From: an uncultured archaeon
GTDB lineage: Archaea > Thermoproteota > EX4484-205 > JAAOZP01
Assembly (NCBI GenBank): GCA_938045545.1
Contig: CALIBN010000017.1
Coordinates: forward strand, 112-64,111
Direction: 5' to 3'
Length of the DNA: 64,000 bases
In this document: positions 7,674 through 57,226 of the stretch, piece after piece
How the letters are laid out: each line of letters starts with the position of its first letter
Position numbering within the stretch: position 1 is the first letter of the stretch
Notes under the pieces: model-generated
What the model was told of the DNA's origin: nothing
Databases searched by the model: none
What the model saw: only the letters and a program-made list of their open reading frames with translations
Translations under genes and position numbers: made by a program

Positions 7674-7898
7674 ATGTTTAGTAATAGATTAACTGGTTTT
7701 GCCCCATCGCCGCCAAAGTTTGATTATCAAAAAATCTTTAGAGAAAATTTATATTCTGAAGAGTTGGAAACTCGACTATTGTTGACGTTGGAAGAAAAAA
7801 GAGTTGAGCAAAAGATCCCTGACCCGTGCGGGGTCAACCATTATCTCTTTTCTAACGATTCTGAAAGTATTCTCGACTGGCTAGTTAAGGAGGGTTAG
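7674..7898 (+). CDS. hypothetical small protein immediately upstream of nrdD
   Basis: 74-aa ORF ending 2 nt before the NrdD start. No recognisable motif. May be a leader ORF or a spurious call. Confidence 0.2.
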   Translation: MFSNRLTGFAPSPPKFDYQKIFRENLYSEELETRLLLTLEEKRVEQKIPDPCGVNHYLFSNDSESILDWLVKEG

Positions 7899-7900
7899 GG

Positions 7901-10900
7901 TTGCAGCAGACAGATTCGAAACAAACTATAAGCAGGATAATTAAGAGAGATGGTAGAGTAGTGGATTTCGACAAGAGCAAGATTACTGAGGCAATATGGA
8001 AAGCGATAAAGTCTGTCGGCGGCAATGACAGGGCCCTAGCGGAGAGGCTTTCAAACCGGGTTGTTGAACGCTTAGAGAGGCAGCTGAAGCCCGGCGAGAT
8101 TCCTCACGTTGAGCAGGTTCAAGACCTGGTTGAGAAAGTGCTTGTTGAGAACAATCTTTACAATGTCGCTAAAGCATACATTCTTTACAGGGCGCTTCAC
8201 GCCCAGATAAGAGAGTTCGTCGACAGCTATCTTGAGAACAAGAGCTGGCTGGTGAAGGAGAATGCTAACACAACATACTCGCTACAGGCTTTAAACTTCC
8301 ACATTTCATCTCAAGTTATCTCACAATACTGGCTTCACAGGATTTTCAACAAGGGTAGGACTGAAATAAGGGAGGCGCATTTAAACGGGGATTTCCACAT
8401 CCACAACCTCGGGATACTTGGGGCGTACTGCGTGGGGTGGGATCTAAAGGACTTGTTAACTACCGGCTTCAAGGGCGTCAGGGGAAAGGTTTCAGCCAAG
8501 CCGGCAAGGCATTTTCGAGTTGCTCTTGGCCACGTCGTCAACTTCATCTTCACATTACAAGGAGAGGCTGCTGGTGCCCAAGCCTTCTCGAACTTCGACA
8601 CTTACCTAGCCCCGTTCATAAGGTATGATAGCCTTGACTATAAGTCGGTTAAGCAGGCTCTTCAAGAATTCATGTTCAACATGAACATACCCACTAGGGT
8701 TGGCTTTCAAAGCTTATGCGGGGATGAGCCGATAATTGTAAAGGAAAAGGGTAAAATCAAAGTTATAGAAATCGGCAAGCTGGTTGACCGTGAATTTGAG
8801 AAATATCCTCACAAGGTGATTGAGCAAAATCCCCATAGCTATGCCTTAGAGAATCATGATGATTACCAAGTTTTATCCTTCAATCCCGATGGGAAGGCTG
8901 TTTGGACCAGGGTTAAGGCGTTCATAAGACATAGAGTTCCTAAGAACTCGGAATTCGTAAGAATTAGAACTAATCGCGGCGAGGCGAAAGTTTCAAAAGC
9001 TCATTCCCTCTTCGCCTTCTCAAAATTCAACGGTAAGTTTAATCCAGTGCCAAAGTCAGCTGAGGATGTTAAGATAGCTGATGATTACCGTCACTTAAAC
9101 GAGGAAAACCACTTCATCGCATTAAGGTCCTTGGACAATCAGGGTGAGAAAGAGGAAATAGACTTGGTTGAGATTATAGATGAGCTCCCCGGTCTTCAAA
9201 AGAATGTTTTCGTCAAGATAAACCCAACGCATACATTGAGGAAAATCAAACAAAGGGCCATTTTAGAGGAGCAGAGCCTTATCCCATTCTACAAGGAGTT
9301 TGGGCTTAAGGACAGGGGTGTGTGGGAAAGTTGGTTGGAGAGTAAATCGATTAGATACGATATCTGGAGGAAATACGGAGGGCTTAACATGAAAGCCGAA
9401 TTTAGGCTCAAGAACAGTGACGTATGGTATCCTAGATTTCTAAAAGGGAAACTGTTAGAGAACTTCGTAAAACTTTGCGCATGGTATATTTCCGAAGGTC
9501 ATACAGCCATTTCTACCCCGCTCTATATTTCCCGATTGCCTTCCGGAAACGCTAGGGAGATCGTCAAGCTCTTAAAGGCTTTAAACGCCTTGGGTCAAGT
9601 AGCCCGCAACAAAGGGTATTCTAGGAATGGAGGAAAGACTAAGACAGTTCTAAAGATAACTGGAAAAGGTCTTTTAGCTGAAATCGTTAGTAAAACCTGC
9701 GGCTATTTGTCTTTCAATAAAGTAGTCCCATGGTTTATCTTTGATCTTTCTCCAAAATATCAGAGGATCTTCATTGAAACAGTCTTGAAAGGCGATGGGG
9801 CAGAATATCAAAAGTATTGGGATTATTCAACTACTTCTGGAAAACTATGTGCAGGACTATGTCTGCTTTTAAGTCAAAACAAATTTAGATTCGCCGTTTA
9901 TACTGAAAAAACCAGTAGGAATAATGAAAAATGGCGAGATGGATTCGTAATTCGAATCTTCAAAGAAAATTCGATACCGAAGAAAACATACTCCGTTAAC
10001 GACTTCGAGGCTAGGGTTTGCCTAGGGGTTGAAAAATTCAACTACGAGAGGGAATACGAATACGATATTTCAGTCAATCTGCCCCAGGAAAACTTTGTTG
10101 GAGGAGCTGGACTCTTGGTCTTCCACAACACGCCTTTCTCGAATGTGACGCTCGACCTTAAGGTTCCAAGCTTCATGGAAGACGAGCCGGTTGTAGTGGG
10201 TGGGGAGATTTTAGACGCTACCTACGGCGAATTCCAAGAAGAGATGAATATTTTCAACAGGGCTCTGGCTGAAGTGATGCTCGAGGGAGACGCTAGCGCA
10301 CGCGTTTTCACTTTTCCAATCCCAACGATAAACATAACTAGGGATTTCAACTGGGATGATGAGATCGTTAGGAAGGTTCTAGAGACTTCTGCGAAGTATG
10401 GTATCCCGTATTTCGCGAACTTCATTAACTCCGACATGAATCCTGAGGATGTTCGCTCAATGTGTTGCCATTTGAGGCTTGACAAAAGGGAATTGAAGAA
10501 GAGAGGTGGAGGGCTTTTTGGAGCAAACCCGCTGACAGGCTGTTATGACGAAAATACGGAAATTTTGACGGAGAAGGGTTGGAAGTTATTTAAAGATTTG
10601 TCTATGAATGATAGGGTGTTTACCTTGAATGAGAATAACGAGATCGAATTGCATCACCCCACGAGACTTTTCGAGTACGAATATGACGGCGAAATGATTC
10701 ATTTCAAGTCAAGGTCTCTGGACTTGTTGGTTACGCCGAACCATCGCATGGTAGTCGACACAGCTAATGGAAAGAGGGCGTTCGTCGAGGCAAGAGATTT
10801 CATACCCAATACTCACCGCATTCCTAAGGGAGGGATCTGGAAAGGCGAAGAAAAAGAATATTTTGTCCTGCCTCCAGTGCCAATATTGCAGGGCAGCGGT

Positions 10901-12631
10901 CCTGAATCAAAGTTATCAGCTGAGCAGCTCGCTCTCATCAGAAAACTGAGAAATGAAGGAAAGGGTATTTATCAATTGGCAAAGGACTTCGATTGTAATC
11001 CGGTAACGATTCTCAACGTTTGCAATGATGGAGGATACGGTAATCGAGAAAGGGTAAGAGTAATATCAGTGGCTCCTCCTTTGAAAGTGAAAATGGACGA
11101 TTGGTTAAAATTCTTCGGCTTTTGGCTGGCTGAGGGTTCAACCGATAATGAAAAAATAGCTAAGAGACATGGCTATAGAGTGGTGATTTCTCAAGTTGAC
11201 AGAAAGAAGAGAGAGGAAATCGAGAACGTCTTGAGGAGGCTACCGTTCCACTATCGTGAGGAAAACTTCAATTTAGTGATTTACAACAAACAGTTGTGGA
11301 ACTATCTTAGGCAATTCGGAAACGAGTTCACAAAATTCATCCCGGAAGAAATAAAGAGATTGGATAGAAAACAGTTGAAGATCCTGTTCGACTGGATGAT
11401 AAAGGGAGACGGCCACGTGAGAAAGGCCACAGGCCAGATAAGCTATTGGACGTCTTCTAAGAAGTTAGCGGACGATTTGCAGGAAATAGCCCTAAAATTG
11501 GGATATATGGCGACCATCTCTACCGTGAAGAAAAAAGCCTCGGAGATGAACGGAAGGCGATTGGTCTCAAACGCCGTCTATGTGATCGGGATTCAAAAGT
11601 TGAGACACTACAGGCTACGGGAACAAAATATAAGGAGGGTTCGCTATCGCGGAAAGGTATACTGCTGTGAGGTAGAAAATCATACGGTGTTCGTGAGGAG
11701 GAACGGAAAGGTCAGTTGGTGCGGAAACTCGATAGGTGTTACCACGATAAACATGCCTAGGATAGGGTTTTTGTCGAAGAGCGAGGGAGATTTCTTCGCC
11801 AGGCTTGACAGGATGATGGTTCTCGCAAAAGACGTGCTAGAGATTAAAAGGAAATGGCTTGAGAAGTTTACTGAGGCCGGTTTATACCCGTATTCCAGGT
11901 TCTACCTGAGGCATGTTAAGGAGGCTTTCGGCTCCTACTGGAAGAACCATTTCAGCACGATAGGCTTAATCGGCATGAACGAGGCCTGTTTAAACTTCCT
12001 AGGATACACTATCGGTGACCCCGAGGGCCTCAGCTTCTCCATTAAAGTTTTAGACTTCATGAGGAAGAGGCTCCAAGATTTCCAGGAGGAAACAGGCAAT
12101 ATTTTCAACCTTGAGGCTACTCCTGCCGAGGGGACCTCTCATCGGCTCGCTAGGCTAGATAAGAAAACCTACCCTAGTATAATAGTTGCGAACGAGGAGG
12201 AGGTCAAGAGGGGCGCCGCGCCGTACTACACGAACTCTACTCACCTCCCAGTTTACTACACCGACGACCTATGGGAATACCTTCGACTCCAAGACCCCCT
12301 CCAGACGAGATACACGGGCGGAACGGTTGCACATATCTGGCTCGGCGAGAGCAACCCGCCGGTCGAGTCGGTCGCAGCGCTCGTGAGGAAGGTCTGCGAA
12401 AACTTCAGGCTCCCCTACTTCACGCTTACACCGACGTTCAGCATCTGCCCAGAAGACGGGTACCTCAGTGGGGAGCAGCCCACGTGTCCGAAGTGCGGAA
12501 GGACCACGGAGGTCTACTCGAGAGTTGTAGGATATCTAAGACCTATAGACCAATGGAACTTGGGTAAGCAGGAGGAGTTTAAGCAGAGGAAGACTTTCGA
12601 CAAAGCCCTCAGCAGGAAACTCGTTGTTTAA
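7901..12631 (+). CDS. nrdD: anaerobic ribonucleoside-triphosphate reductase (class III, NrdD) with N-terminal ATP-cone; host of two inteins
   Basis: TTG start preceded by aGGAGGg. The N-terminal ATP-cone is 'ISRIIKRDGRVVDFDKSKITEAI'. The C-terminus has a zinc ribbon (CPEDG...CPKCG) and the glycyl-radical motif 'SRVVGYLRP'. With both inteins removed the extein is about 700 aa. Confidence 0.8.
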   Translation: MQQTDSKQTISRIIKRDGRVVDFDKSKITEAIWKAIKSVGGNDRALAERLSNRVVERLERQLKPGEIPHVEQVQDLVEKVLVENNLYNVAKAYILYRALHAQIREFVDSYLENKSWLVKENANTTYSLQALNFHISSQVISQYWLHRIFNKGRTEIREAHLNGDFHIHNLGILGAYCVGWDLKDLLTTGFKGVRGKVSAKPARHFRVALGHVVNFIFTLQGEAAGAQAFSNFDTYLAPFIRYDSLDYKSVKQALQEFMFNMNIPTRVGFQSLCGDEPIIVKEKGKIKVIEIGKLVDREFEKYPHKVIEQNPHSYALENHDDYQVLSFNPDGKAVWTRVKAFIRHRVPKNSEFVRIRTNRGEAKVSKAHSLFAFSKFNGKFNPVPKSAEDVKIADDYRHLNEENHFIALRSLDNQGEKEEIDLVEIIDELPGLQKNVFVKINPTHTLRKIKQRAILEEQSLIPFYKEFGLKDRGVWESWLESKSIRYDIWRKYGGLNMKAEFRLKNSDVWYPRFLKGKLLENFVKLCAWYISEGHTAISTPLYISRLPSGNAREIVKLLKALNALGQVARNKGYSRNGGKTKTVLKITGKGLLAEIVSKTCGYLSFNKVVPWFIFDLSPKYQRIFIETVLKGDGAEYQKYWDYSTTSGKLCAGLCLLLSQNKFRFAVYTEKTSRNNEKWRDGFVIRIFKENSIPKKTYSVNDFEARVCLGVEKFNYEREYEYDISVNLPQENFVGGAGLLVFHNTPFSNVTLDLKVPSFMEDEPVVVGGEILDATYGEFQEEMNIFNRALAEVMLEGDASARVFTFPIPTINITRDFNWDDEIVRKVLETSAKYGIPYFANFINSDMNPEDVRSMCCHLRLDKRELKKRGGGLFGANPLTGCYDENTEILTEKGWKLFKDLSMNDRVFTLNENNEIELHHPTRLFEYEYDGEMIHFKSRSLDLLVTPNHRMVVDTANGKRAFVEARDFIPNTHRIPKGGIWKGEEKEYFVLPPVPILQGSGPESKLSAEQLALIRKLRNEGKGIYQLAKDFDCNPVTILNVCNDGGYGNRERVRVISVAPPLKVKMDDWLKFFGFWLAEGSTDNEKIAKRHGYRVVISQVDRKKREEIENVLRRLPFHYREENFNLVIYNKQLWNYLRQFGNEFTKFIPEEIKRLDRKQLKILFDWMIKGDGHVRKATGQISYWTSSKKLADDLQEIALKLGYMATISTVKKKASEMNGRRLVSNAVYVIGIQKLRHYRLREQNIRRVRYRGKVYCCEVENHTVFVRRNGKVSWCGNSIGVTTINMPRIGFLSKSEGDFFARLDRMMVLAKDVLEIKRKWLEKFTEAGLYPYSRFYLRHVKEAFGSYWKNHFSTIGLIGMNEACLNFLGYTIGDPEGLSFSIKVLDFMRKRLQDFQEETGNIFNLEATPAEGTSHRLARLDKKTYPSIIVANEEEVKRGAAPYYTNSTHLPVYYTDDLWEYLRLQDPLQTRYTGGTVAHIWLGESNPPVESVAALVRKVCENFRLPYFTLTPTFSICPEDGYLSGEQPTCPKCGRTTEVYSRVVGYLRPIDQWNLGKQEEFKQRKTFDKALSRKLVV
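8711..10129 (+). mobile_element. intein 1 in NrdD (473 aa, LAGLIDADG homing-endonuclease type)
   Basis: Block A 'SLCGDEPIIVKEKGKIKVIEIG' begins with Ser. The C-terminal 'LLVFHN' is followed by +1 Thr. Internal LAGLIDADG-like motifs are 'KLCAWYISEGHT' and 'IETVLKGDGAE'. The flanks rejoin as 'RVGFQ|TPFSNVT'. Confidence 0.75.
10541..11728 (+). mobile_element. intein 2 in NrdD (396 aa, homing-endonuclease type with HTH)
   Basis: Block A 'CYDENTEILTEKGWKLF'. LAGLIDADG-like 'FFGFWLAEGST' and 'LFDWMIKGDGH'. The C-terminus 'ENHTVFVRRNGKVSWCGN' is followed by +1 Ser. The penultimate residue is Gly rather than His, so the C-terminal boundary is approximate. Confidence 0.6.
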
Positions 12632-45936: not shown

Positions 45937-46827
45937 TTAACCACCTATTGACAGCTCTACGTCGACGATGTTCAGGAATATTATCGTTCCGTTACCCCCC
46001 TGGTCTGGAACACTGTAGTTCTTTAAATAGGGGCCTCTTTCAACACTCACCGTGATGCTCGTCGAATCGGGAAGCCTTATTACCCTGGTGGTCACGTTAG
46101 TAACTCTGGCGCAAACATTGTAAACATTGGTTCCGCTGAAAGTCCCGTAGACAATCCTGACGTAGGTTACCTCAACAACGTTAACAGGCTCCCAGTTCAG
46201 CCCATTGTCCCTCGTAACTCTTATTGTGCCTGAGGGCACAACCCTGACCCTTCCGAAATCCATTATGACCCACGCCCCCTGTTCACGCTTCAAGTACACC
46301 CATCCGAGTGGAGCCGATTCATCCGGGCTGACTATAAGGTGGTCCGTCGGAAGAGCATTGGGAATCCCTTTGAGAACCTGGTAGTCGAGCGAGGATACGC
46401 CACCCCCTCCCCTGAACTTAGGCAGGTTAACAATGTCCTCGAAGACCTCCAAGGAAGCCCCGCTCTCGTCGCTAATAGTTATCTTCAGCCGCTCAGCGCC
46501 GCGTGTGAGAGAGAGCCCCCCGCTGCTCACTGCAAACCTCACGTATCCCGCTTCACCCTTAACAAGGCTCATGCCCTCTATCATCTGCGCGAGGCTGATC
46601 ATGCTCGCCTTACCGTTTTCAAACTCCGTTGCCTGAGCCTGCATCGAAAGGTTGAGCTGGGCGAAGAAGACTCCTCCCACAATCATTCCTAGCGTCACGG
46701 TGACGAGCATGACTGTCGCCACAACCTCTGAGACACCCTTATCGTCCAGCCTGACCCTAGCCAATGGTGCCACCGCCCGTGGGAACTGGGGTGAAAGAAT
46801 AGTATGGGGCGAGCAGTATGGTGGCAA
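45937..46827 (-). CDS. pilin-like protein (class III signal peptide)
   Basis: 'RLDDKG|VSEVVATVMLVTVTLGMIVGGVFFA' is an archaeal pilin-type N-terminus. The annotated ATG overlaps the upstream TadC-like ORF by 71 nt in another frame. Confidence 0.5.
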   Translation of the reverse strand: MPPYCSPHTILSPQFPRAVAPLARVRLDDKGVSEVVATVMLVTVTLGMIVGGVFFAQLNLSMQAQATEFENGKASMISLAQMIEGMSLVKGEAGYVRFAVSSGGLSLTRGAERLKITISDESGASLEVFEDIVNLPKFRGGGGVSSLDYQVLKGIPNALPTDHLIVSPDESAPLGWVYLKREQGAWVIMDFGRVRVVPSGTIRVTRDNGLNWEPVNVVEVTYVRIVYGTFSGTNVYNVCARVTNVTTRVIRLPDSTSITVSVERGPYLKNYSVPDQGGNGTIIFLNIVDVELSIGG

Positions 46828-48589
46828 AGGTGAATATTAAGAGCATTAGAGCGTGGAAGAAGCCTGAGGAAACCTCCCCGTATGCAATCTTACCCCCGAC
46901 CAGGCCCATCATGTAGACGTGTAGGATGACGGGTGGGAGAAGTAGTTGAACCATGTCTGCGAAAGCCATTGACCGCCCAGCCATGAGAAGCATCGACCTG
47001 AAGAATGTTAAGAGCGCTATGACTGTTACAACCAGCACTCCGGTCCCGATGTACGGTATCATGAGCAGCGGCCTGAGCTCAGACCTCTTCTCCTTCTCCA
47101 TCAGTATTATCGACTCGTTGAACCTCGCAAGCGTCTCAAGAGTCTCAGGAGTGCCTCCGCCAACCTCTATGGCGTCGAGAAGGAGGAACATGCTTATCTT
47201 CGTAAGCCATGTCCTAACCTTCTTTGAAAACGTCTTATATATTTCAGCGTGGCTTATCCCCCATGAGATCTGCGTGGCCATCGTCTTAATATGCCTGGAG
47301 AGATTCCCGTAGTTCCTCTCAGAGAGGGATATTATGCATTTCTCAGGGCTTAGCCCAGACTTCCTAATCTCCACAAGATCCCTGAGGAAGCCTGCGAAAC
47401 CAACATCCATGCCCCTCTCCTTGAAACTGATGTACATCCTGTAGGCTACCACGGGGATTGAAGAGATAGCCAAGGTTAGGATGAGCCCAATAGTGGGCTC
47501 GTAGCCACGCTCAAGCTGCAAATACTCTCTCAGCCAGACGATGAAGTTGCTTAGGAGGTTGAAAGGCGGAATATCTCTCAAGCCCGGGGCTAGGAAGGAG
47601 ACGCAGAACCCGGGTATGAGCAACGCCATTATGGGAGTAGCCGTGGCGGCGAAAACAATGTAGGGCGAGTTGTCCTCCATCGGGTACTTCGGCTGAACAA
47701 TGTCTATGAGCCAGAGGAACATGAGGGAGAAGAAGGGTAGGAAAGCGTAGCTGAACAATACGAATGACAGAATGTTCCCGAATATGCCGCCGCCGGCGCC
47801 GGCTACAAGCTCCCCGATAGACATTTGAACAGCGTAAATAGTGTATATGCCGAGCAGGAGAAGTATCGCGAAGACGATGTAAACCTCCATCAGTTGCCCA
47901 AGCCTCCCGCCGATGAGCTTAAGGTTCTCAAGCCTCTCCTGGAATAATAGCTCAGTCCTTCGGAGAAGATAGTGGACAACGTCCCCACCAGTCTTAAGGG
48001 TTGAAGCATAGCCTAGGAGAAGCTCCCTGAACTCCTTGGAGGGAAGCTTCTTCCCAATCTCCTCCAGAGCCGTGACAGGGTCGTAGCCCAGGCCCCTAAC
48101 CATGATGTCGAGAAGCTTAGCCGTCTCTGAGAAAGTTGGGAGGAGGGGTACGCGTGAAAGCCTCATTATGCTCACGTACGGCGAAATACCTCCCGTAGAC
48201 ATAACCGCGGTGTAGGCTGCAGCATAGGGGACCTCTGAGGAGAGGGAAGCCTTAATGCTTGAAATCTTCATCCTGGGCCAAGCTATGCCGAGTAGGAAGA
48301 CTATGACTGGGAGACAAAGGAGCAAGATGGGTATGAGGTAGACTTCGCGGAAGCCGAGGTTGACGACGATAATGTCGTAGCTTAGAAACAGCACGCTTGA
48401 CAACGCTACTGAGACGATTGCGGTTATGAACGTTGCCAGGAGAACAGTGGCGCCGTAGGCCCTCGGGTACACTCTTATCCCGGAGGCTTCAAGGTCGCCG
48501 CACATCTTCGCAACACTGTCTCCAAGCGGGCCGAACAGCCATGCGGCGAAGCTCGATATGGACAATACTAAGTATTTTAACCATAACAT
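46757..48589 (-). CDS. type IV pilus assembly membrane protein (TadC/FlaJ/T2SS-F family)
   Basis: 610-aa polytopic protein with two T2SSF-like cytoplasmic repeats ('LLDIMVRGLGYDPVTALEEIGKKL', 'LSRHIKTMATQISWGISHAEIYKTF'). Confidence 0.8.
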   Translation of the reverse strand: MLWLKYLVLSISSFAAWLFGPLGDSVAKMCGDLEASGIRVYPRAYGATVLLATFITAIVSVALSSVLFLSYDIIVVNLGFREVYLIPILLLCLPVIVFLLGIAWPRMKISSIKASLSSEVPYAAAYTAVMSTGGISPYVSIMRLSRVPLLPTFSETAKLLDIMVRGLGYDPVTALEEIGKKLPSKEFRELLLGYASTLKTGGDVVHYLLRRTELLFQERLENLKLIGGRLGQLMEVYIVFAILLLLGIYTIYAVQMSIGELVAGAGGGIFGNILSFVLFSYAFLPFFSLMFLWLIDIVQPKYPMEDNSPYIVFAATATPIMALLIPGFCVSFLAPGLRDIPPFNLLSNFIVWLREYLQLERGYEPTIGLILTLAISSIPVVAYRMYISFKERGMDVGFAGFLRDLVEIRKSGLSPEKCIISLSERNYGNLSRHIKTMATQISWGISHAEIYKTFSKKVRTWLTKISMFLLLDAIEVGGGTPETLETLARFNESIILMEKEKRSELRPLLMIPYIGTGVLVVTVIALLTFFRSMLLMAGRSMAFADMVQLLLPPVILHVYMMGLVGGKIAYGEVSSGFFHALMLLIFTFATILLAPYYSFTPVPTGGGTIG

Positions 48590-48901: not shown

Positions 48902-49369
48902 ATGAGAATGCTGAACGACAAAAGGGGCGTAAGCCCAGTGATAACGACAGTAATCATCGTCGCAGTAGGCATAACGATCGCGATAGCGGTAGCACTGTGG
49001 ATGACAGGACTCGTCGGTGCTTTCATGGGGTACGAGAAGATTGAGATAAGAAGCACCTTCGCAAACCCGTTACAGGGTGGCGGTTGGGATGTAGTAATTA
49101 CCTACGTGAACACGGGTTCTTCTCCAGCGAAGATAGATAATGTTTTCGTGAACAACATTCCCTACGACCAATGGCAAACCATAGTATGCAAGCCAGATGT
49201 TAAGTCGAATCCGGCTCCAGCTAACATCGGAGAAGAAGGAACAATAACTTTAACTATATCCGACGGTGCTAAATACAGTAATCAAAAGCTTGTGAGCGGC
49301 GTCACTGTGACGATTAAGCTCCACTCGACAGGCGGCAAGGAGTACTTCACGAGCGTGGTCCTCCCTTAA
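48902..49369 (+). CDS. type IV pilin (archaeal, class III signal peptide)
   Basis: 'MRMLNDKRG|VSPVITTVIIVAVGITIAIAVALWMTGLV' is a canonical prepilin N-terminus. 155 aa. Confidence 0.8.
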   Translation: MRMLNDKRGVSPVITTVIIVAVGITIAIAVALWMTGLVGAFMGYEKIEIRSTFANPLQGGGWDVVITYVNTGSSPAKIDNVFVNNIPYDQWQTIVCKPDVKSNPAPANIGEEGTITLTISDGAKYSNQKLVSGVTVTIKLHSTGGKEYFTSVVLP

Positions 49370-49428: not shown

Positions 49429-52400
49429 GTGTTGGATGTTAAAGGTGGAAACATCTGGGTGTTGCTCCCCGGTTTCTCAGCGGGGGGTTTGAAAGCTAAA
49501 GTGTTTAACAAACTTTATAAAACTCTCCCCCCGTCTAACAATGGTCAAATGGGCTTCGAGAAGCCTGGGGAAGGGAAGGAGGGTAATCCTGCTGTGGCTG
49601 AGGCCAGGGCTGAGGCTAAGCCTACGGTGGCTGAGAAGAGGGAGGAGAGGCCTAAGCCCGCTAAGGAGGAGAAGAAGAAAAAGAAGAAGGAGGAAGAGGA
49701 GGAGGTCGTCGAGTATGTTTTCGACCCCATCCCGGTTAACGCTAAGCCTGTGGACGAGTACTGGATTGAAGAGCCTTTCGTCAGGATCCTGATCATACCC
49801 ATCCCGGGGAGGGGTGGCGAGAAAGGATACTTCGTCGACGAGGTTTCCCTGGACAGGACTGAGAGGAATGCTTTCAACAGGCTTAAGGATATTCTGAGCA
49901 GGGAGCTCAGGCCCCCGGAGGACATGTCTGTCGAGGCGAGGAGCTACGTTATGGAGGAGGCCCGGAGGCTGATGAAGAAGTATAGGAGCATACTTGGCTC
50001 TCTGAACGAGGAGTCCATGAGGAAGGTTGAGTACTACATTAGGAGGGACCTCATAGGCTACGGGCCGATAAACCCGATCGTGGAGGATAAGAATGTTGAG
50101 GACATTTCCTGCGACGGCATCGACAAGCCTGTCTACGTCTGGCACAGGAGGTATGAGAGCCTCCCCTCGAACCTGAGGATCGCGGACAAGGGTTATTTCA
50201 ACGACTTCATAATTAAGCTTGCGCACTTCGCTGGGAAGCATATTAGCGCAGCCTTCCCCATCGTGGACGCTATGCTCCCAGGCAGGCATAGGCTTGCAGC
50301 CACATACGGGGACGAGGTTTCAACCTTCGGCTCAACCTTCACCATAAGGAAGTTCAGGGAGGAGCCTTTCAGCATCGTCGACCTTATTAAGCTGGGCACG
50401 ATAAGCCCGTCTCTCGCAGCCTACTTCTGGTTCATCCTCGACAACAGGCTAACCGTCATGGTGATAGGTGGAACGGGCGCGGGTAAAACTTCTTTCCTGA
50501 ACGCTTTAACAAACCTTTTCAAGCCTGGCCTTAAGATCGTCACGGTTGAGGAGACGGCTGAGCTGAACATTCCGCACGACAACTGGGTCCAGTTCGTAAC
50601 CAGGGAGAGCTACGGTCTTGGAACCTCCAAGATAGGCGAGATAACCATGTTCGACCTCGTCAAGACCTCTCTAAGATATAGGCCTGACTACCTGATCGTC
50701 GGAGAGATAAGGGGCGCCGAAGCGTTCGTGCTCTTCCAAGCCATGGCCAGCGTTTCACGCGACACCCCGGTCCTGGTGAAGAATAGGGAGGGACATGTTT
50801 CGCTGGTCAGAGTGGGTGATTTCGTAGACGGGTTTTACGGGGAAGGGGAGGAGCGCATCCCGAAGCATGTTGAAGGATACTGGGTGCTTTCTCACGCTGG
50901 TTTCAAACCGGTCTGGAAACCAGTGCGATACGTGCTGAGGCACAGTGCCGGGGAGGTTTACGAGGTTGAGTATGAAGGCGGCGGGAGACTACTGGCCACC
51001 GGCAGCCACAGCGTCTTCACCCTTGATCCTGAGACTCTTGATGTCAGGGAGAAGCCTGTTGAACGGCTTAAGCCTGGGGATTACTTGGTTACGTTCACAG
51101 GGGGAGGCGGGGACGATTATAGCGTCGTCAACGGGGTTGAGATGCTCAGCGGGCTTGAAGATGTTTACGCCGACAACCTGCCGGCAGGTCTGAAGCAGCT
51201 TACTGGAGGAAGGAACCCCGTGCTGCTAAGCGTTCTCGCCAAGCTGGGCGCTGAAGAAGAGGAGCTGGAGGAAGCTGTCCTGCATCATCCACATGGGCAT
51301 GCACTGCCCGCTCTGATCCGTCTAGACGAGAATCTGGCATTCGTGTTCGGCGCCTACTTGGCGGAAGGATTCGTTAAGCGGGGCAGGGGTAAGAGACTAT
51401 GCTTCACGTTCGGCAAGGGTGAAACAGATATAGCTAATAGGGTTGTGGAGATCCTGGCTGAGAGGTTCGGCGCCAAACCCTCGGTAGACGACCGTGGAAC
51501 ACACCTTATCTACGATTTTAACCACACGCTTCTCGCGGAGCTGTTTGAAAAGCTGCTGGGGGCACGCTTAAGGGAGAGACGAATACCTTCGCAGCTCTGG
51601 TCTTCTCCAAGCAGTGTTGTGCAAGCGTTCTTCGAAGGGTTGCGTGCAGACGCCCGGAGAACCGTTAGGAAACGGGGAATCCAGTACTTGACGGCAAACG
51701 AGTGGCTGGCATACCAGCTTACGTGGCTCGCCAGGCTGGCCGGCTTCTACTCGAGCCTACGGTGCGAACGCGGTACGGGTAGGAACTCCGGCAGGACGTA
51801 TTGGAACGTGATCGTCTACCTTGACCATAAGTATAGGAAGCCGAACCCGGCTGAGAGAATTCCCGTGAAACCCCTCTTGAAGCTTATCGAGGTTGCGAAG
51901 CCAACATCGATGCCGTTCAGGCTGACATACGTCAGGAAGAGGGAATTCGTAACGAGGAGAAAGGCGCTGGAGATACTGGAGTGGGTTAGGGAGAAGGGCC
52001 GCCTTAATCCTGAGGCGCTCAAGTACTTGAGAACTCTGGAGAAGCTGATTCAGGGCCAGCTCGCCGTCGTGAAAGTGAGGAGAATACGGCGTAGAAACTA
52101 TAATGGTTACGTCTACGATCTTTCTGTTCCCGAGACTGAGTCCTTCCTCGGGGGCGGGGCACCCGTCCTCCTGCACAACACCGGCCACGGTGGTCTCAGC
52201 ACTGTTCACGCTGAGAACATTGACTACGCTATTAAGAGGATGACGAGCCCGCCTATGAACATCGCCGAATCCTATATTCCGCTCATGAACGTAGCATGCT
52301 TGGTTGAGAGGGTTGTCCTCCCCAAGAAGGCTGGAGTACCCTTCGGGAGAAGGGTTAGACACGTTTGGGAGCTTGACCCCGAGGGCAACAGGATTACGAT

Positions 52401-52638
52401 TTCACACTGGGACCCGATGGAGGATTTCCACGATGTTGACTTCAGCAGGTCTGTGCATCTCCCCAACGTGTGCAGGAAGATAGGCATGCCTCCAGACTGG
52501 TACATAAGGGAGCTGCAGGTGAGGGAGAGCGTCATAAGATGGATGATGGATAACAATGTGACTCACTTCAGGGATGTTGCCAGGGTTGTGACCGAGTTCC
52601 ACGTTAAGAGGGCTGAGGTGCTTTCAAGACTAAGGTGA
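49429..52638 (+). CDS. type IV pilus assembly ATPase (FlaI/TadA/VirB11/KlbA family) with Lys/Glu-rich N-terminal extension; intein host
   Basis: Walker A 'VIGGTGAGKTSFLNA', 'DYLIVGEIRGAEAFVLFQAMA' then the intein then 'TGHGGLSTVHAEN'. N-terminal low-complexity 'EKREERPKPAKEEKKKKKKEEEEEVVEY'. The extein is about 592 aa. Confidence 0.85.
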   Translation: MLDVKGGNIWVLLPGFSAGGLKAKVFNKLYKTLPPSNNGQMGFEKPGEGKEGNPAVAEARAEAKPTVAEKREERPKPAKEEKKKKKKEEEEEVVEYVFDPIPVNAKPVDEYWIEEPFVRILIIPIPGRGGEKGYFVDEVSLDRTERNAFNRLKDILSRELRPPEDMSVEARSYVMEEARRLMKKYRSILGSLNEESMRKVEYYIRRDLIGYGPINPIVEDKNVEDISCDGIDKPVYVWHRRYESLPSNLRIADKGYFNDFIIKLAHFAGKHISAAFPIVDAMLPGRHRLAATYGDEVSTFGSTFTIRKFREEPFSIVDLIKLGTISPSLAAYFWFILDNRLTVMVIGGTGAGKTSFLNALTNLFKPGLKIVTVEETAELNIPHDNWVQFVTRESYGLGTSKIGEITMFDLVKTSLRYRPDYLIVGEIRGAEAFVLFQAMASVSRDTPVLVKNREGHVSLVRVGDFVDGFYGEGEERIPKHVEGYWVLSHAGFKPVWKPVRYVLRHSAGEVYEVEYEGGGRLLATGSHSVFTLDPETLDVREKPVERLKPGDYLVTFTGGGGDDYSVVNGVEMLSGLEDVYADNLPAGLKQLTGGRNPVLLSVLAKLGAEEEELEEAVLHHPHGHALPALIRLDENLAFVFGAYLAEGFVKRGRGKRLCFTFGKGETDIANRVVEILAERFGAKPSVDDRGTHLIYDFNHTLLAELFEKLLGARLRERRIPSQLWSSPSSVVQAFFEGLRADARRTVRKRGIQYLTANEWLAYQLTWLARLAGFYSSLRCERGTGRNSGRTYWNVIVYLDHKYRKPNPAERIPVKPLLKLIEVAKPTSMPFRLTYVRKREFVTRRKALEILEWVREKGRLNPEALKYLRTLEKLIQGQLAVVKVRRIRRRNYNGYVYDLSVPETESFLGGGAPVLLHNTGHGGLSTVHAENIDYAIKRMTSPPMNIAESYIPLMNVACLVERVVLPKKAGVPFGRRVRHVWELDPEGNRITISHWDPMEDFHDVDFSRSVHLPNVCRKIGMPPDWYIRELQVRESVIRWMMDNNVTHFRDVARVVTEFHVKRAEVLSRLR
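50749..52179 (+). mobile_element. intein in pilus ATPase (477 aa, KlbA-type insertion site, LAGLIDADG endonuclease)
   Basis: Block A 'SVSRDTPVLVKNREGHVSLVRVG'. 'LAFVFGAYLAEGFV' and 'FFEGLRADA' are LAGLIDADG-like. The C-terminal 'APVLLHN' is followed by +1 Thr. The flanks rejoin to the conserved 'LFQAMA|TGHGG'. Confidence 0.8.
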
Positions 52639-52639
52639 A

Positions 52640-53407
52640 TTGTCCTACTGGCCCTGGCTTGAGAATGCTCGCAGCATAGTCTCCATAATACTCCTATCCT
52701 TAGGCTCAATCCAGGATTTTAAGAGCAGGGAGATAGATGACCGCATATGGGTGGTTTTCCTCGCCTCAGCGGTAATCCTAAACCTTCCGGGTGTTTTCAA
52801 CGGCTCCGTTGAGCCAGCCTGGTGGCTTCTCTTCGCAGGCCTCCAGTCATGCCTCTTCATCCTCCTGTACTACGCTGGTGTCTACGGGGGTGCTGACGCT
52901 AAGGGGCTTATGTGCCTGAGCCTAATGTACCCCTCCACGCCGACGGGTTTCCTGATAGACCTGAGCACGGGGAGGCTTCCAGTAGCTTTCTCAACGATGA
53001 ACAATGCTCTAATGCTCACCGTACTCTACCTGCCAATCAACCTTTTCTGGAACATCTCTGTTAAGCTCAGGGGGGTTGAGCTTTTCAAAGGCTTGGAGAA
53101 GGAAAACTTGTTGAGAAGGGCTGCTGCGCTTCTCCTCCTAAGGAAGGTAAGGTTCTCGCAATACTGTGCTGAGAACAGCAGGTTCCTGCTAGCTGAAAGA
53201 AGGAGCAGGAGCGGTGTTAGAAGAATCGTTTTCTCGAGAAAGATGGATGAGAAGGCTGAGCAGGGTTTCAAGCCTGACGAGCATGTTTTCACAAGCTTCC
53301 TCATGCCCCTGCAAGTCCTACTGCTCCTAGGCCTAGTCGTAAGGCTTTTCTACGGTGATATTCTGCTAGCGCTCTCGCTCTTGGTGGCTAGCCGCCTCGC
53401 AAAGTAA
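52640..53407 (+). CDS. prepilin peptidase (A24 family, PibD/FlaK/EppA-like)
   Basis: First Asp motif 'IQDFKSREIDD'. Second motif 'VYGGADAKGLMCL', which is GxxDxK. 255-aa polytopic membrane protein starting 2 nt after the ATPase stop. Confidence 0.75.
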   Translation: MSYWPWLENARSIVSIILLSLGSIQDFKSREIDDRIWVVFLASAVILNLPGVFNGSVEPAWWLLFAGLQSCLFILLYYAGVYGGADAKGLMCLSLMYPSTPTGFLIDLSTGRLPVAFSTMNNALMLTVLYLPINLFWNISVKLRGVELFKGLEKENLLRRAAALLLLRKVRFSQYCAENSRFLLAERRSRSGVRRIVFSRKMDEKAEQGFKPDEHVFTSFLMPLQVLLLLGLVVRLFYGDILLALSLLVASRLAK

Positions 53408-54615: not shown

Positions 54616-54820
54616 ACAGGGTTTAACCAGTTTAATCCGGGTTTTAGACGTAGAAGTTGAAACGTTGGAAGGTCCGCAATCTATGCTATCTGTGTTAAAA
54701 TGGCTTAAACCCCGCTTGAAAAAGCTTTTCCGCTCCTCTCGACTCGAGTCGACGCTTAACCATGAGGCTGGAAACGGGAAACTTTTATAATCTTCTTATC
54801 CAGCCTTCTGGTGAAGCCTG

Positions 54821-57226
54821 ATGGTTCAGCAGGATGCTGAGGAGCTTAAAGAGAGGATGATGCAGGTGGCTGGCCGCAGGATACTCGCAGGCGGTCCGAA
54901 GCCCGTTCTAAAGGAGGGTGAGGAGCACGTTAGGGACACGCTTTCAGTCTGCCCAGAGTGCTACAGGCTTCTCCCCGCGCTTGTCTACGAGAAGGATGGT
55001 AAAATCTGGATTAGGAAGAAGTGCCCGGAGCACGGTGAGGTCGAGGACCTTTACTGGGGTGATGCCGCGATGTACAGGAGGGCGATGAGGTATGAGGCTC
55101 CTCGGGCAAATGTTAAGTATGCTTACAGGCAGCTTGAAAACCCCTGCCCCTTCTCATGCGGCATATGCTCCATCCACACTACTCAGACGGCTCTTGCCAA
55201 CGTTGTCGTGACGAACAGGTGTAACTTCTCATGCTGGTACTGCCTACCGGGAGACGAGAAGGTTCTTTTTAAGACCGGTGAAGAAATTTTGTTGGAAAGT
55301 TTTGAGGAGGCTTCGAAGAACCTTGCCTTCAACCATAAAGCTAAGGTGGAAGGCTTCTCCGGTGAATACGCTGTTCCCGAAAATCTGAACGTTCTAACTT
55401 TTAATGGGGGTAAGGCTGAATGGACTAGGGTTACAAAAATATTCAGAAGAAGATATGAGGGAAAGATTTTGAGGATTAAGACGCGGACAGGGCGTGAAGT
55501 CAGGGTGACGCCGGAACACATGTTTTTCGTTAATGAGAACGGAGAAATAAACAAAAAGCGAGCTGACCAGCTTGATGGGAAAAGCGAGCTCATCTTACTC
55601 TGGAGTTTCAATGCCATCAGCAGCCTCGGGGAGATCAACCTCTTAGAAAGGTTTAAAACACCTCCGGGGGGAGACGAGGAGAAAGTCTACGTCAGAAGCG
55701 TGGACGACATCAACGTCCTCCTGTTGAGGAGGAAATACGGGTTGCCTAAGCTCAGGAATGGCCATTTAGTGAATCTTGGCGATATTGGTGAAAGGAAGGA
55801 GGCTAGGGTAGTGAGGCTTGGAGACTTTTACCTAGATAAGGTGGAGTCTATAGTAGAAGAGCACTACGCTGGCTACGTGTATGATTTAGAGGTTGAGAAC
55901 GAGGGCCATTCATTCGTAGCGTCAGACGGTTTTCTGCTTAGCAACTGCTTCTTCTTCGCCGAGAGGTCTGGCTACGTGTATGAGCCAACGCTGGAGCAGT
56001 ACAGGATGATGATGAAGCATTTGAGGAAGCAGTATCCTTACGGTGCTAAGGCTATTCAGCTCACGGGCGGCGAGCCTTTGATGAGGGACGACCTTGTCGA
56101 CGTCATCAGGATAACGAGGGAGGAGGGCTTCACCCATATTCAGCTCAATACTCACGGTGTTTTCTTCGCGCTTGAAGGTGGTGTCGAGCTCGCCAGGAGG
56201 CTTAGGCAAGCAGGGGTTAACACCGTCTACCTGAGCTTCGACGGACTCGACCCGAGGATAAACGTGAAGAACCATTGGGAGATCCCCTATATTTTTGAAA
56301 ACTTCCGTAAGGCCGGTATGACTAGCGTCGTCCTCGTCCCCACCGTGATAAACGGCTGGAACACTCATGAGCTTGGAAAGATAGTGAGGTTCGCCGCAGT
56401 TAACAGCGATATAGTTAGGGGTGTTAACTTTCAACCCGTCTCGTTGGTAGGCCAGATGCCTAGGAGCGAGAGGGATAAGCATAGGATAACCATCCCGGAT
56501 GTGATAAGGCTACTGGAGGAGCAGACGAACGGGGAGATAGGTAAAGAAGCCTGGTACCCCGTCCCGTTCACACTCGTGTTGACAACGTTCCTAGAGAAGC
56601 TGACTAAGGGTAAGGAAAGGTGGCACATGCCTATTCACCCTGCCTGCGGAATGGCGACCTACGTTTATCTCGACAGGTCTAAGAATGGCATCCATTTCGT
56701 GCCGATAACGAGCTTCGTTGACGTAGAGGGACTCTCGGAATACTTGAGGGAGAAAACTGTTGAGATGGAGAAAGGGAGAAGCAGATACATGGTGATGCTT
56801 GAACTAGTCCGTAGACTTGGTCGCTTCATAGATAAGGAGAAACAGCCCAAAGACCTCAACCTAGGAAAAATACTGACAAATATAATCCTCAGAAGAAGCT
56901 ACGGTGCGTTAAGCATATTTCATTATAAATTTAATTATTTAGGTATGATGCATTTTATGGATCCGTATAACTACGATGTCGAGAGGGTTATGCGTTGCGG
57001 TGTTCACTACGTCACCCCAGACATGAACGTCGTCCCCTTCTGCACGTTCAACGTCCTCCCGGAGCTCTACAGGGATAATGTTCAGAAGGAGTTCTCGGTG
57101 AGCCTTGAGGAGTGGAACAAACTTAAGCCCGGGACCGTTGGTGATAAGGCTAAGTATAAGAGGGACGTTAGGAAGCTCGCATCCGGAGAGACATATAAAA
57201 AGACGTATGAGGGTTTCCTCGAGTAG
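54821..57226 (+). CDS. radical-SAM protein with N-terminal rubredoxin-like zinc ribbon (possibly tetraether lipid synthase Tes/GDGT-MAS family); intein host
   Basis: Zinc ribbon 'CPECYRL...CPEHG'. A second Cys cluster 'CPFSCGIC'. The radical-SAM CxxxCxxC, 'NRCNFSCWY[intein]C', is reconstituted only after splicing. 'LTGGEPLM' is the SAM-binding motif. The extein is about 566 aa. Assignment to the Tes family is tentative. Confidence 0.75.
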   Translation: MVQQDAEELKERMMQVAGRRILAGGPKPVLKEGEEHVRDTLSVCPECYRLLPALVYEKDGKIWIRKKCPEHGEVEDLYWGDAAMYRRAMRYEAPRANVKYAYRQLENPCPFSCGICSIHTTQTALANVVVTNRCNFSCWYCLPGDEKVLFKTGEEILLESFEEASKNLAFNHKAKVEGFSGEYAVPENLNVLTFNGGKAEWTRVTKIFRRRYEGKILRIKTRTGREVRVTPEHMFFVNENGEINKKRADQLDGKSELILLWSFNAISSLGEINLLERFKTPPGGDEEKVYVRSVDDINVLLLRRKYGLPKLRNGHLVNLGDIGERKEARVVRLGDFYLDKVESIVEEHYAGYVYDLEVENEGHSFVASDGFLLSNCFFFAERSGYVYEPTLEQYRMMMKHLRKQYPYGAKAIQLTGGEPLMRDDLVDVIRITREEGFTHIQLNTHGVFFALEGGVELARRLRQAGVNTVYLSFDGLDPRINVKNHWEIPYIFENFRKAGMTSVVLVPTVINGWNTHELGKIVRFAAVNSDIVRGVNFQPVSLVGQMPRSERDKHRITIPDVIRLLEEQTNGEIGKEAWYPVPFTLVLTTFLEKLTKGKERWHMPIHPACGMATYVYLDRSKNGIHFVPITSFVDVEGLSEYLREKTVEMEKGRSRYMVMLELVRRLGRFIDKEKQPKDLNLGKILTNIILRRSYGALSIFHYKFNYLGMMHFMDPYNYDVERVMRCGVHYVTPDMNVVPFCTFNVLPELYRDNVQKEFSVSLEEWNKLKPGTVGDKAKYKRDVRKLASGETYKKTYEGFLE
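55241..55945 (+). mobile_element. mini-intein (235 aa) inserted inside the radical-SAM cysteine motif
   Basis: Block A 'CLPGDEKVLFKTG'. The C-terminal 'EGHSFVASDGFLLSN' is followed by +1 Cys, which is the third Cys of CxxxCxxC. No full LAGLIDADG domain is recognisable. Confidence 0.7.

Follow-up and report, generated by a model that had tools for sequence, protein, structure and literature searches.

A predicted class 1 intein with a nested LAGLIDADG endonuclease domain at the His box of an archaeal pilus-type ATPase

Introduction

Novikova et al. 2016 (PMC4760082, Table 3) counted 21 archaeal 'VirB11' (COG0630) inteins in Crenarchaeota, Euryarchaeota and other Archaea, the insertion sites of which are not given in the main text of that paper; inteins in such ATPases are thus already on record. 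The KlbA inteins, as Mja KlbA (MJ0781; PDB 2jmz/2jnq), carry Ala1 and Cys+1 and belong to mechanistic class 2, in which Cys+1 attacks the N-terminal amide directly (PMC2807308). Here we analyzed an insert located in an ATPase gene within a window of 64,000 nucleotides of archaeal DNA, the window being the whole stretch that was analyzed. The best match of this insert, both in sequence (6.8e-23) and in structure, is PI-PkoII, the intein-2 of Thermococcus kodakarensis DNA polymerase (PDB 2cw7). Our data indicate that the insert, located at the first His-box residue of a FlaI/GspE2-type ATPase, is very probably a class 1 intein harboring a LAGLIDADG homing endonuclease.

Results

The host gene (positions 49429-52638, plus strand) was recognized from the ORF list and from a Pfam T2SSE match (PF00437, 1e-28; COG0630-type) as encoding a FlaI/GspE2-family ATPase precursor of 1069 aa including the intein, with a reading frame unbroken across 3.2 kb. 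The start codon is uncertain, GTG preceding a Lys/Glu-rich, low-complexity N-terminus. The solved structures nearest to the ATPase are those of A. fulgidus GspE2 (2oap, 3.1e-95) and FlaI (4ii7/4ihq). The NCBIfam FlaI and BasE models matched the protein with scores below their equivalog cut-offs, and the ATPase was therefore not assigned to a specific system. The order of the motifs, named according to the definitions of the Walker motifs, Asp box and His box in structural papers on PilB/CpaF-type ATPases (PMC5424180, PMC11300603), is Walker A, Asp box, atypical Walker B (GEIR) and His box (TGH...H), which fits a PilT/VirB11/FlaI-like secretion ATPase (PF00437). The N-extein (440 aa, 49429-50748, plus strand) ends with LFQAMA and contains Walker A GGTGAGKTS (50467-50493), the putative Asp box VTVEETAEL (50539-50565), which was assigned by position only, and Walker B RPDYLIVGEIRG (50680-50715). 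The C-extein (152 aa and stop, 52180-52638, plus strand), delimited by sequence and extein alignment, opens with the His box TGHGGLSTVHA (52180-52212), whose Thr, His and His match T411/H413/H420 of PilB by spacing, Thr+1 being the counterpart of T411. Since Walker B lies upstream of the intein, the insertion falls between Walker B and the His box, 11 residues past Walker B and at the first His-box residue, and not between Walker A and Walker B as a preliminary description of this DNA had proposed.

The neighboring genes were then considered. Upstream, on the plus strand, a pilin-like protein of 155 aa (48902-49369) bears an N-terminus resembling archaeal class III signal peptides (..KRGVSPVITTVIIVAVG..) and showed only weak UpsA and arch_flag_Nterm matches, under the NCBIfam cut-off. 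A polytopic membrane platform protein of 610 aa (T2SSF / FlaJ-UpsF-like; 46757-48589, minus strand) was identified by Pfam T2SSF (4.1e-21), with UpsF and ArlJ matches under the NCBIfam cut-off, and a prepilin/preflagellin peptidase of the A24 family (255 aa; 52640-53407, plus strand) by Pfam Peptidase_A24 (2.1e-11), with a FlaK_Arch match under the NCBIfam cut-off. The same gene order occurs in the loci L014, L015 and L016. The intein-bearing protein is the ATPase belonging to this type IV pilus-like cluster of archaeal genes, in agreement with the pilus-type ATPase proposed earlier, and removal of the insert is needed to restore its conserved active-site motif. Judged by the relatives of its exteins, the organism falls among Thermoproteota / 'Brockarchaeota', and an identical precursor protein is found on an independent assembly. 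Three further ORFs overlapping the region (51757-52362, minus strand; 49477-50289, minus strand; 50945-51193, plus strand) gave no family matches and were treated as spurious.

The insert spans 477 aa from Ser1 to Asn477 (50749-52179, plus strand), exactly where the preliminary description had located it, and was delimited by sequence, Pfam/NCBIfam models, AF2 and Foldseek. Its junctions, marked here by slashes, read in frame LFQAMA/SVSRDTPVLV…APVLLHN/TGHGG, so that both the Ser-initial block A and the HN/T end previously noticed are present. The protein P0001 (588 aa, 97 % identical over the ATPase core) is devoid of the insert and reads ...VLFQAMATGHGGLSTVHA..., with QAMATGHGG uninterrupted; the flanks thus rejoin to the conserved core and a native-domain reading of the insert is excluded by this ortholog. 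All of the best 120 extein homologues are intein-free. An intein-HMM search, as had been suggested for this locus, returned matches above the cut-off for Pfam Intein_splicing (E = 4.7e-18; 65.9 bits against 35.8) and for NCBIfam intein_Nterm (31.8 bits against 24.5, spanning intein aa 2-91) and intein_Cterm (19.9 bits against 15.6).

The N-terminal splicing (Hint) half, approximately intein aa 1-118 (50749-51102, plus strand), was defined by the family alignment and intein_Nterm, is all-beta in the AF2 model and resembles TFIIB mini-inteins and the N-terminus of PI-PkoII. It contains block A SVSRDTPVLV (50749-50778) and block B LLATGSHSVF with its Thr-x-x-His pair (50989-51018), the ATGSHSVF segment being kept across the family of inteins found at the same site. 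The C-terminal splicing region (52060-52179, plus strand), recognized by sequence comparison, intein_Cterm and the family alignment, comprises block F YVYDLSVPETESFL (52108-52149), whose segment YVYDLSVPETESF retains the Asp, and block G APVLLHN, which ends in His476-Asn477 and is followed by Thr+1. All splicing motifs being present, the insert is, as judged from its sequence, a bona fide class 1 intein that would be expected to splice.

The similarity to PI-PkoII spans both the splicing and the endonuclease parts, further matches being TFIIB mini-inteins and VMA inteins. The AF2 model of the intein (pLDDT 90.9, pTM 0.89) places between the two Hint halves a region made of two alpha-beta-beta-alpha-beta-beta-alpha halves followed by helices 373-435. 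AF2 and Foldseek delimited this endonuclease core and helical C-terminal accessory domain to approximately intein aa 191-437 (51319-52059, plus strand). Foldseek returned PI-PkoII with E = 5.6e-31 (TMq 0.75) together with TliVMA, PhoVMA, PI-PfuI and PI-SceI, all the top matches being intein endonucleases plus the free-standing I-DmoI, and phmmer matched the PI-PkoII endonuclease region at 3e-15. The first LAGLIDADG motif LAFVFGAYLAEGF (51334-51372, plus strand), aligned to LAKLLGYYVSEGY of PI-PkoII, is canonical (..AYLAEG), with intein Glu206 as the putative catalytic acid; this column holds Asp/Glu in most members of the same-site family and is lost in decayed ones. The second motif VVQAFFEGLRADARR (51616-51660, plus strand), aligned to AFLEGYFIGDGD of PI-PkoII, is non-canonical, reading ..GLRADARR instead of ..GDG and missing the terminal Gly. 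Its putative catalytic acid, intein Asp301, stands one position earlier than the PI-PkoII Asp and is conserved in the family consensus xG[LYW]xAD[AGS]RR. Family members missing one LAGLIDADG acid usually miss both. Pfam LAGLIDADG_3 alone remained below its cut-off (19.3 bits against 22.5) and, taken with the atypical second motif, this leaves room for an inactive or altered nuclease. The earlier statement that a LAGLIDADG endonuclease is retained is nevertheless borne out by the PI-PkoII similarity, the family alignment, AF2 and Foldseek, and the predicted model indicates a LAGLIDADG-type endonuclease domain that is nested in the intein and may be active.

The preliminary description had assigned the insert to the KlbA site, and an allele of the known KlbA intein would indeed be consistent with the common ATPase superfamily, with the His box being struck in both cases and with the LAGLIDADG domains that also occur in some KlbA-site inteins (L005, L007-L010). 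The extein comparison with KlbA ATPases suggested in that description was carried out on sequences drawn from the genome collection, which belong to close relatives of M. jannaschii and not to M. jannaschii itself; for MJ0781 and its orthologs, a 5.8-billion-protein index queried with the Mja KlbA intein had returned only one weak match. In the spliced-extein alignment the KlbA inteins of Methanocaldococcus and Methanothermococcus (TGHDG/A...SN/CSGTLHA) lie exactly 5 residues C-terminal of the window site, and the invariant TGH motif excludes shifting the Methanocaldococcus junction upstream; Micrarchaeota KlbA-type hosts, which read TGHRG/A, were left out of this alignment. KlbA-type junctions showed Ala1 in 11/11 complete readings and Cys+1 in the 7/7 read through the C-terminal end, as against Ser1 and Thr+1 in the window intein. 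The Mja KlbA intein (2jmz) matched the window intein with E = 0.11, over block F/G only, against values of 1e-15 to 1e-23 for non-KlbA inteins, and the host ATPase is about 31 % identical to the KlbA host protein. Furthermore, some proteins hold, besides a window-type intein, another one at a position resembling that of KlbA (after TGHGGL/SGHGAI, where the slash separates two variants); occupation of both positions in one protein points to two independent intein sites. On these grounds the assignment to the KlbA site has to be abandoned, an allele of the KlbA intein being extremely improbable.

Homologous inteins were found at the identical site, QAx[AS]/S...HN/[TS]GH, of FlaI/GspE2/TadA-like ATPases from uncultured archaea known from metagenomes; at least 35 cluster representatives carry one, including P0272 from an Acidilobales MAG, P0273 from a Thermoprotei MAG, P0276 from a Thaumarchaeota MAG and P0122-P0152. 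They are 36-55 % identical to the window intein and range in size from 166 to 493 aa, from mini-inteins to endonuclease-bearing forms; the closest full-length one does not exceed 55 % identity, while the partial P0274/L016 allele reaches 80 %. Among close lineages the intein is present in the window and in L016 and is absent from L014, whose empty site reads …GTCTTGTTCCAAGCCATGGCGACGGGTCACGGTGGCCTTAGC…; the empty site in the nearest lineage requires either precise loss or independent gain. This patchy presence, together with forms that extend from full-length down to mini, fits the usual cycle of gain, decay and loss of homing elements.

Substitution rates were calculated against L016. Purifying selection was evident in both the exteins (dN/dS 0.03-0.07) and the intein (0.11-0.16), with a dN/dS of about 0.11 over intein aa 320-437, a part not involved in splicing. 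The dS values of the intein (0.97) and of the C-extein (1.14), both near saturation (about 1), are similar, which argues for long co-residence and against recent invasion. No co-conversion tract or flank variants common to intein-bearing alleles were seen, and no compositional mark of recent transfer was observed, the GC and GC3 of the intein being within the range of the host gene. Taken together, low dN/dS and patchy presence fit a maintained element that may still be mobile, although selection for folding or splicing, instead of nuclease function, could account for the low ratio.

Discussion

The features described above suggest the following pathway. The gene would be translated as the 1069-aa precursor, in which Ser1 would undergo an N-O acyl shift; the ester so formed would be attacked by Thr+1, the residue that doubles as the conserved threonine of the His box. 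Cyclization of Asn477, aided by His476, would release the intein, and an O-N shift would link ...LFQAMA to TGHGG.... The mature ATPase would measure about 592 aa, and its segment from Walker B to the His box would be intact. As the 477-aa domain sits beside residues that contact the gamma-phosphate, the precursor is presumably inactive before splicing. In intein-free alleles, the endonuclease domain would be predicted to cleave the DNA across the junction ...CAAGCCATGGC/AC.GG.CACGG..., after which the intein would be copied in by recombinational repair (homing).

A dead insertion in a non-functional gene remnant, with no splicing and with ATPase activity lost or supplied elsewhere, is very improbable: nothing speaks positively for it, and it is at odds with the intact 3.2-kb frame, the full set of catalytic splicing residues, the strong purifying selection on exteins and intein and the identical protein on an independent assembly. 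A more serious alternative, possible although somewhat doubtful in our opinion, holds that the intein is able to splice but that its endonuclease no longer works; it would then be fixed, vertically inherited and immobile, and kept only because a loss that is imprecise would ruin an essential motif of the active site. The non-canonical second motif, the LAGLIDADG_3 score below the cut-off and the decay or deletion of endonucleases in many same-site relatives are what this alternative would predict; the similar dS of intein and C-extein, suggesting long vertical co-inheritance, and the lack of any compositional anomaly or visible co-conversion tract point in the same direction. On the other hand, both motif acids are kept, while clearly decayed relatives lost theirs, AF2 and Foldseek predict, with high confidence, an intact fold, and the dN/dS of 0.11 was measured in a part dispensable for splicing. 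The empty site in the nearest lineage, with its need for precise loss or independent gain, also weighs against an immobile intein. The same evidence bears on the invasive allele put forward in the preliminary description: the intein-free allele in the closest relative and the intact-looking endonuclease agree with it, while the dS values fit old residence with loss equally well.

The insertion site at the His-box threonine is well populated, separate from the KlbA site 5 residues away and, as far as could be found, apparently undescribed; our survey of the literature on inteins in connection with FlaI, the His box or the type IV pilus yielded nothing relevant, Novikova et al. being covered by their main text. 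We tentatively consider a broader scenario, which on balance seems unlikely, in which two separate intein homing sites lie 5-6 codons apart in the His box of archaeal pilus/archaellum ATPases, the window intein being active and homing-competent at the upstream site and still spreading among Brockarchaeota-like populations. The downstream site would be occupied by the Ala1/Cys+1 KlbA inteins in Methanococcales and by Cys1/Cys+1 inteins in the proteins carrying two inteins. If this were true, the pair would provide a natural system for studying interference between neighboring inteins, because some relatives hold both sites with a 6-residue extein between them; more speculatively, splicing might act as a temperature-dependent gate on pilus assembly.

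In terms of annotation, the locus should be described as one intein-containing ATPase precursor with a mature product of about 592 aa, and not as a fusion or a KlbA homolog. The same-site family spans the full homing cycle, with endonuclease-bearing, decayed, mini and empty states, and an empty-site control is at hand. A Ser1/Thr+1 intein with a cysteine-free junction from a probably thermophilic lineage could also interest protein engineers. The current understanding of inteins is unchanged by the window intein.

As for the known systems, the KlbA inteins share with the window intein the archaeal origin, the host superfamily COG0630 (VirB11/KlbA/FlaI) and the His-box motif, but differ in the site, 5 residues downstream, in the Ala1/Cys+1 pair as opposed to Ser1/Thr+1 and in a negligible similarity between the inteins. 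PI-PkoII, PI-PfuI (1dq3) and TliVMA (7qss) are, like the window intein, of class 1 with a nested two-motif LAGLIDADG domain and extra DNA-binding elements, and this group has in common with it the C-terminal ...HN end and the overall size class. Their hosts are DNA polymerase, RNR or VMA, whereas the window intein resides in a pilus-type ATPase, and with respect to PI-PkoII it shows only about 21 % identity, a Ser start and ..GLRADARR in place of ..IGDGD in the second motif. The same-site inteins (QAx[AS]/S..DTP...LLHN/[TS]GH), whose hosts include a FlaI-like subfamily (FQAMQ/../TGHPV), share the insertion point, the block sequences and the endonuclease motif pattern of the window intein, but many of them (166-360 aa) have no endonuclease, while the window intein keeps it.

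Identification of the intein and its host gene

The ATPase precursor was found to be encoded by an open reading frame of 1069 amino acids (49429-52638, forward strand), whose translation contained a 477-residue segment beginning with SVSRDTPVLV at nt 50749 and ending before TGHGG at nt 52179, flanked by ...YLIVGEIRGAEAFVLFQAMA and TGHGGLSTVHAEN...; the coordinates given for the insert in the preliminary description were therefore exact. The Pfam model Intein_splicing matched the insert with 65.9 bits (cut-off 35.8), and the NCBIfam models intein_Nterm and intein_Cterm each scored above their own cut-offs. These matches and a complete set of splicing residues (Ser1, block B ATGSHSVF, block F YVYDLSVPETESF, His476-Asn477 and Thr+1) supported the original intein call. 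A phmmer search against solved structures returned PI-PkoII as the best match (6.8e-23), covering the N-terminal splicing half and residues 172-477, with further matches to TFIIB mini-inteins (1e-15 to 1e-16), VMA inteins and the RadA intein.

The Pfam T2SSE (PF00437) match extended to residue 440 of the ATPase, and the spliced sequence aligned without a break through the junction with both A. fulgidus GspE2 (2oap, 3.1e-95) and S. acidocaldarius FlaI (about 1e-68), indicating that the two flanks of the insert are parts of one protein. The intein-free ortholog P0001 (588 aa, on a 537-kb JGI contig) was 97% identical to the window ATPase in its core and read ...VLFQAMATGHGGLSTVHA... at the site, with nothing inserted. 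The two genes were about 87-90% identical in DNA, 1431 nt being missing from that of P0001, and both loci shared the order T2SSF platform, pilin-like gene, ATPase, A24 peptidase, metallophosphoesterase and NTPase. All of the 120 best extein homologs were intein-free, those with names being labelled Brockarchaeota, Thermoproteota, Nitrososphaerota/Nitrososphaeria, Thermofilum or Infirmifilum.

The N-terminus of the reading frame (49429-49700, forward strand) has a putative GTG start and is low in complexity, rich in Ala, Glu and Lys (...KKKKKKEEEEE...). It is poorly conserved in P0001 (first 90 nt about 60% identical) and missing from shorter homologs. The GTG at 49429 is therefore annotated as tentative.

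Position of the insertion among the ATPase motifs

Walker A (GGTGAGKTS) and Walker B (RPDYLIVGEIRG) occupy residues 347-355 and 418-429 of the precursor. The intein starts 11 residues past Walker B and the C-extein opens with the His box TGHGGLSTVHA, so that the insertion separates Walker B from the His box and not, as had been proposed, Walker A from Walker B. The same motif order occurs in CpaF, with Walker B residues E357/R359 followed by His-box H382 (PMC11300603). Thr+1, His+3 and His+10 of the window ATPase are equivalent in their spacing to PilB T411, H413 and H420. In the PilB subunit interface T411 lies between both histidines, and H420 contacts the gamma-phosphate (PMC5424180). This correspondence suggests that a conserved functional threonine of the host serves as the +1 nucleophile, as is usual among inteins, which implies that the unspliced precursor would be inactive.

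The nested endonuclease domain

An AlphaFold2 model of the intein, calculated from an alignment of 10 sequences, showed a pLDDT of 90.9 and a pTM of 0.89. Its best PDB matches were the intein endonucleases PI-PkoII (5.6e-31, TMq 0.75), TliVMA, PhoVMA, PI-PfuI and PI-SceI, and the free-standing LAGLIDADG enzyme I-DmoI was also retrieved (TMt about 0.65). LAGLIDADG motif 1, LAFVFGAYLAEGF, is canonical and carries Glu206, while motif 2, FFEGLRADARR, is specific to the family; its conserved acid, Asp301, stands one position ahead of the corresponding acid of PI-PkoII. Most of 20 aligned same-site inteins had an acid at both motif positions; P0131, P0140 and P0145 lacked it at both. The motifs, the predicted fold and the similarity to PI-PkoII established the endonuclease domain and supported the description of a pilus-type ATPase interrupted by an intein that carries a LAGLIDADG endonuclease. 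With the Pfam LAGLIDADG_3 model sub-threshold on its own, activity of the enzyme is graded no higher than likely.

Mobility and selection

An identical precursor protein was found on an independent Logan assembly. A second intein-bearing allele, L016, whose contig begins within the intein, shared 80% identity with the window in the final 158 residues of the intein and 87% in the C-extein. Nei-Gojobori estimates against L016 gave a dN/dS of 0.11 (dS 1.05) for intein residues 320-437, the endonuclease tail plus helical domain, which is dispensable for splicing, 0.16 (dS 0.78) for the C-terminal splicing part and 0.07 (dS 1.14) for the C-extein. The extein core compared with L014, the closest lineage with an empty site, gave 0.03 (dS 0.58).

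By extein divergence L014 is nearer to the window than L016 is, yet empty; the pattern (window with intein, L014 without), L016 with intein therefore requires a single precise loss or else two separate gains, both hallmarks of homing elements. The similarity of intein and extein dS against L016 favours long co-residence over a very recent invasion, with the qualification that dS is near saturation. Neither a co-conversion tract in the flanks of the intein-bearing alleles nor a compositional anomaly of the intein relative to its host gene was seen.

Neighbouring genes and other inteins in the window

The window appears otherwise intein-rich: the ATPase, NrdD and Tes together bring the count in its 64 kb to at least four. 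The anaerobic ribonucleotide reductase NrdD (7889-12628, forward strand) is a 1580-aa open frame with two apparent inteins, at about residues 277-747 (..FQSL↓CGDEPII...LLVFHN↓TPF; arrows mark intein junctions) and 885-1279 (..NPLTG↓CYDENTE...VSWCGN↓SIG), the second with a clear LAGLIDADG_3 match (1e-12). Tes, the radical SAM tetraether lipid (GDGT) synthase (54821-57226, forward strand; NCBIfam rSAM_GDGT_ether, 677 bits), contains a 235-aa mini-intein (about nt 55241-55945, forward strand) within the CxxxCxxC iron-sulfur motif (CNFSCWY↓CLPGDE...FLLSN↓CFFF), its +1 Cys therefore being the third cluster cysteine. The Tes intein is already known, since NCBIfam offers a dedicated 'Tes, intein-containing' model; the L016 ortholog (1022 aa) retains a LAGLIDADG domain.

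Synteny between the window and L014 ends directly past the NTPase_1 gene (window about 54616-54820; L014 9717-9911), where the window continues with the Tes gene and L014 with a peroxiredoxin (AhpC-TSA). L016 carries additional genes ahead of Tes, a 163-aa ORF and a SLFN/AlbA_2 protein. Upstream of the ATPase, a small protein (48902-49369, forward strand) shows a typical archaeal type IV pilin-like N-terminus, MRMLNDKRG/VSPVITTVIIVAVG...; no significant family match was found for it, UpsA and arch_flag_Nterm being below cut-off. The protein probably serves the pilus-like cluster as filament subunit and would represent an undescribed pilin family.

Relatives of the intein and comparison with KlbA inteins

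Searched exhaustively with phmmer, 1.84 billion cluster representatives gave 290 matches to the window intein at E ≤ 1e-10. Among the best 89, at least 35 were inteins at the same place in archaeal PF00437 ATPases (36-55% identity, 166 to 493 aa), sharing the pattern Q-A-x-[AS]↓S-V-[ST]-x-D-T-P ... L-L-H-N↓[TS]-G-H. Their hosts included GspE2-like (TGHGG) and FlaI-like (FQAMQ↓...↓TGHPV) proteins, named examples coming from Acidilobales, Thermoprotei and Thaumarchaeota MAGs. Remoter members of the lineage occurred in AAA+/FtsH-type ATPases (AA↓..↓TNRPD), RFC (LNA↓..↓SDERG), MCM, Top6B and TFIIB, among other hosts.

The KlbA-type loci were retrieved from the genome collection with the Mja KlbA intein sequence, confirmed against PDB 2jmz. 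Their N-terminal junction reads ...AMNTGH(D/R)G↓A... in Methanocaldococcus, Methanothermococcus and Micrarchaeota, and the C-terminal one, covered in Methanocaldococcus, Methanothermococcus and two unclassified archaeal MAGs, reads ...SN↓C(S/M)GT(L/I)H(A/S)NS... In a MAFFT alignment of spliced exteins the window junction (QAMA↓TGHGG·LSTVHA) and the KlbA junction (VAMNTGHDG↓CSGTLHA) were offset by exactly 5 residues, the KlbA junction being the more C-terminal; the host proteins were only about 31% identical. KlbA inteins begin with Ala, have Cys+1 and define mechanistic class 2 (PMC2807308), whereas the window intein has Ser1 and Thr+1 and matched Mja KlbA with an E value of only 0.11. The earlier assignment to the KlbA site is thereby ruled out, and the element is a class-1 intein whose insertion site, in the His box, recurs among archaeal ATPases of the type IV pilus/archaellum type.

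In the ATPases P0148, P0156, P0185 and P0193 a homolog of the window intein is followed by TGHGGL or SGHGAI only and then by a second intein (Cys1/Cys+1) at the KlbA-like position. The occupation of both sites in single proteins shows that the upstream His-box site and the KlbA-like site are independent; with six extein residues between them, the tandem inteins must splice around a hexapeptide and have overlapping homing sites. Beside these two sites, PF00437 ATPases showed at least three more, at Walker A (GK↓S/T), IED↓S/T and GEVRG↓SEA, the last just past Walker B. Single proteins carry up to three or four inteins, e.g., P0130 (2140 aa). The family is an intein hot spot (P0130, P0132, P0157, P0166 and others); a published survey had already listed 21 inteins for archaeal 'VirB11' (COG0630) proteins, Crenarchaeota included (PMC4760082). 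The window intein is a known kind of element, with an apparently intact endonuclease and a nearest relative bearing the empty-site allele, and the most useful by-products of the comparison are its precise separation from the KlbA site and the tandem inteins only six residues apart in its relatives.
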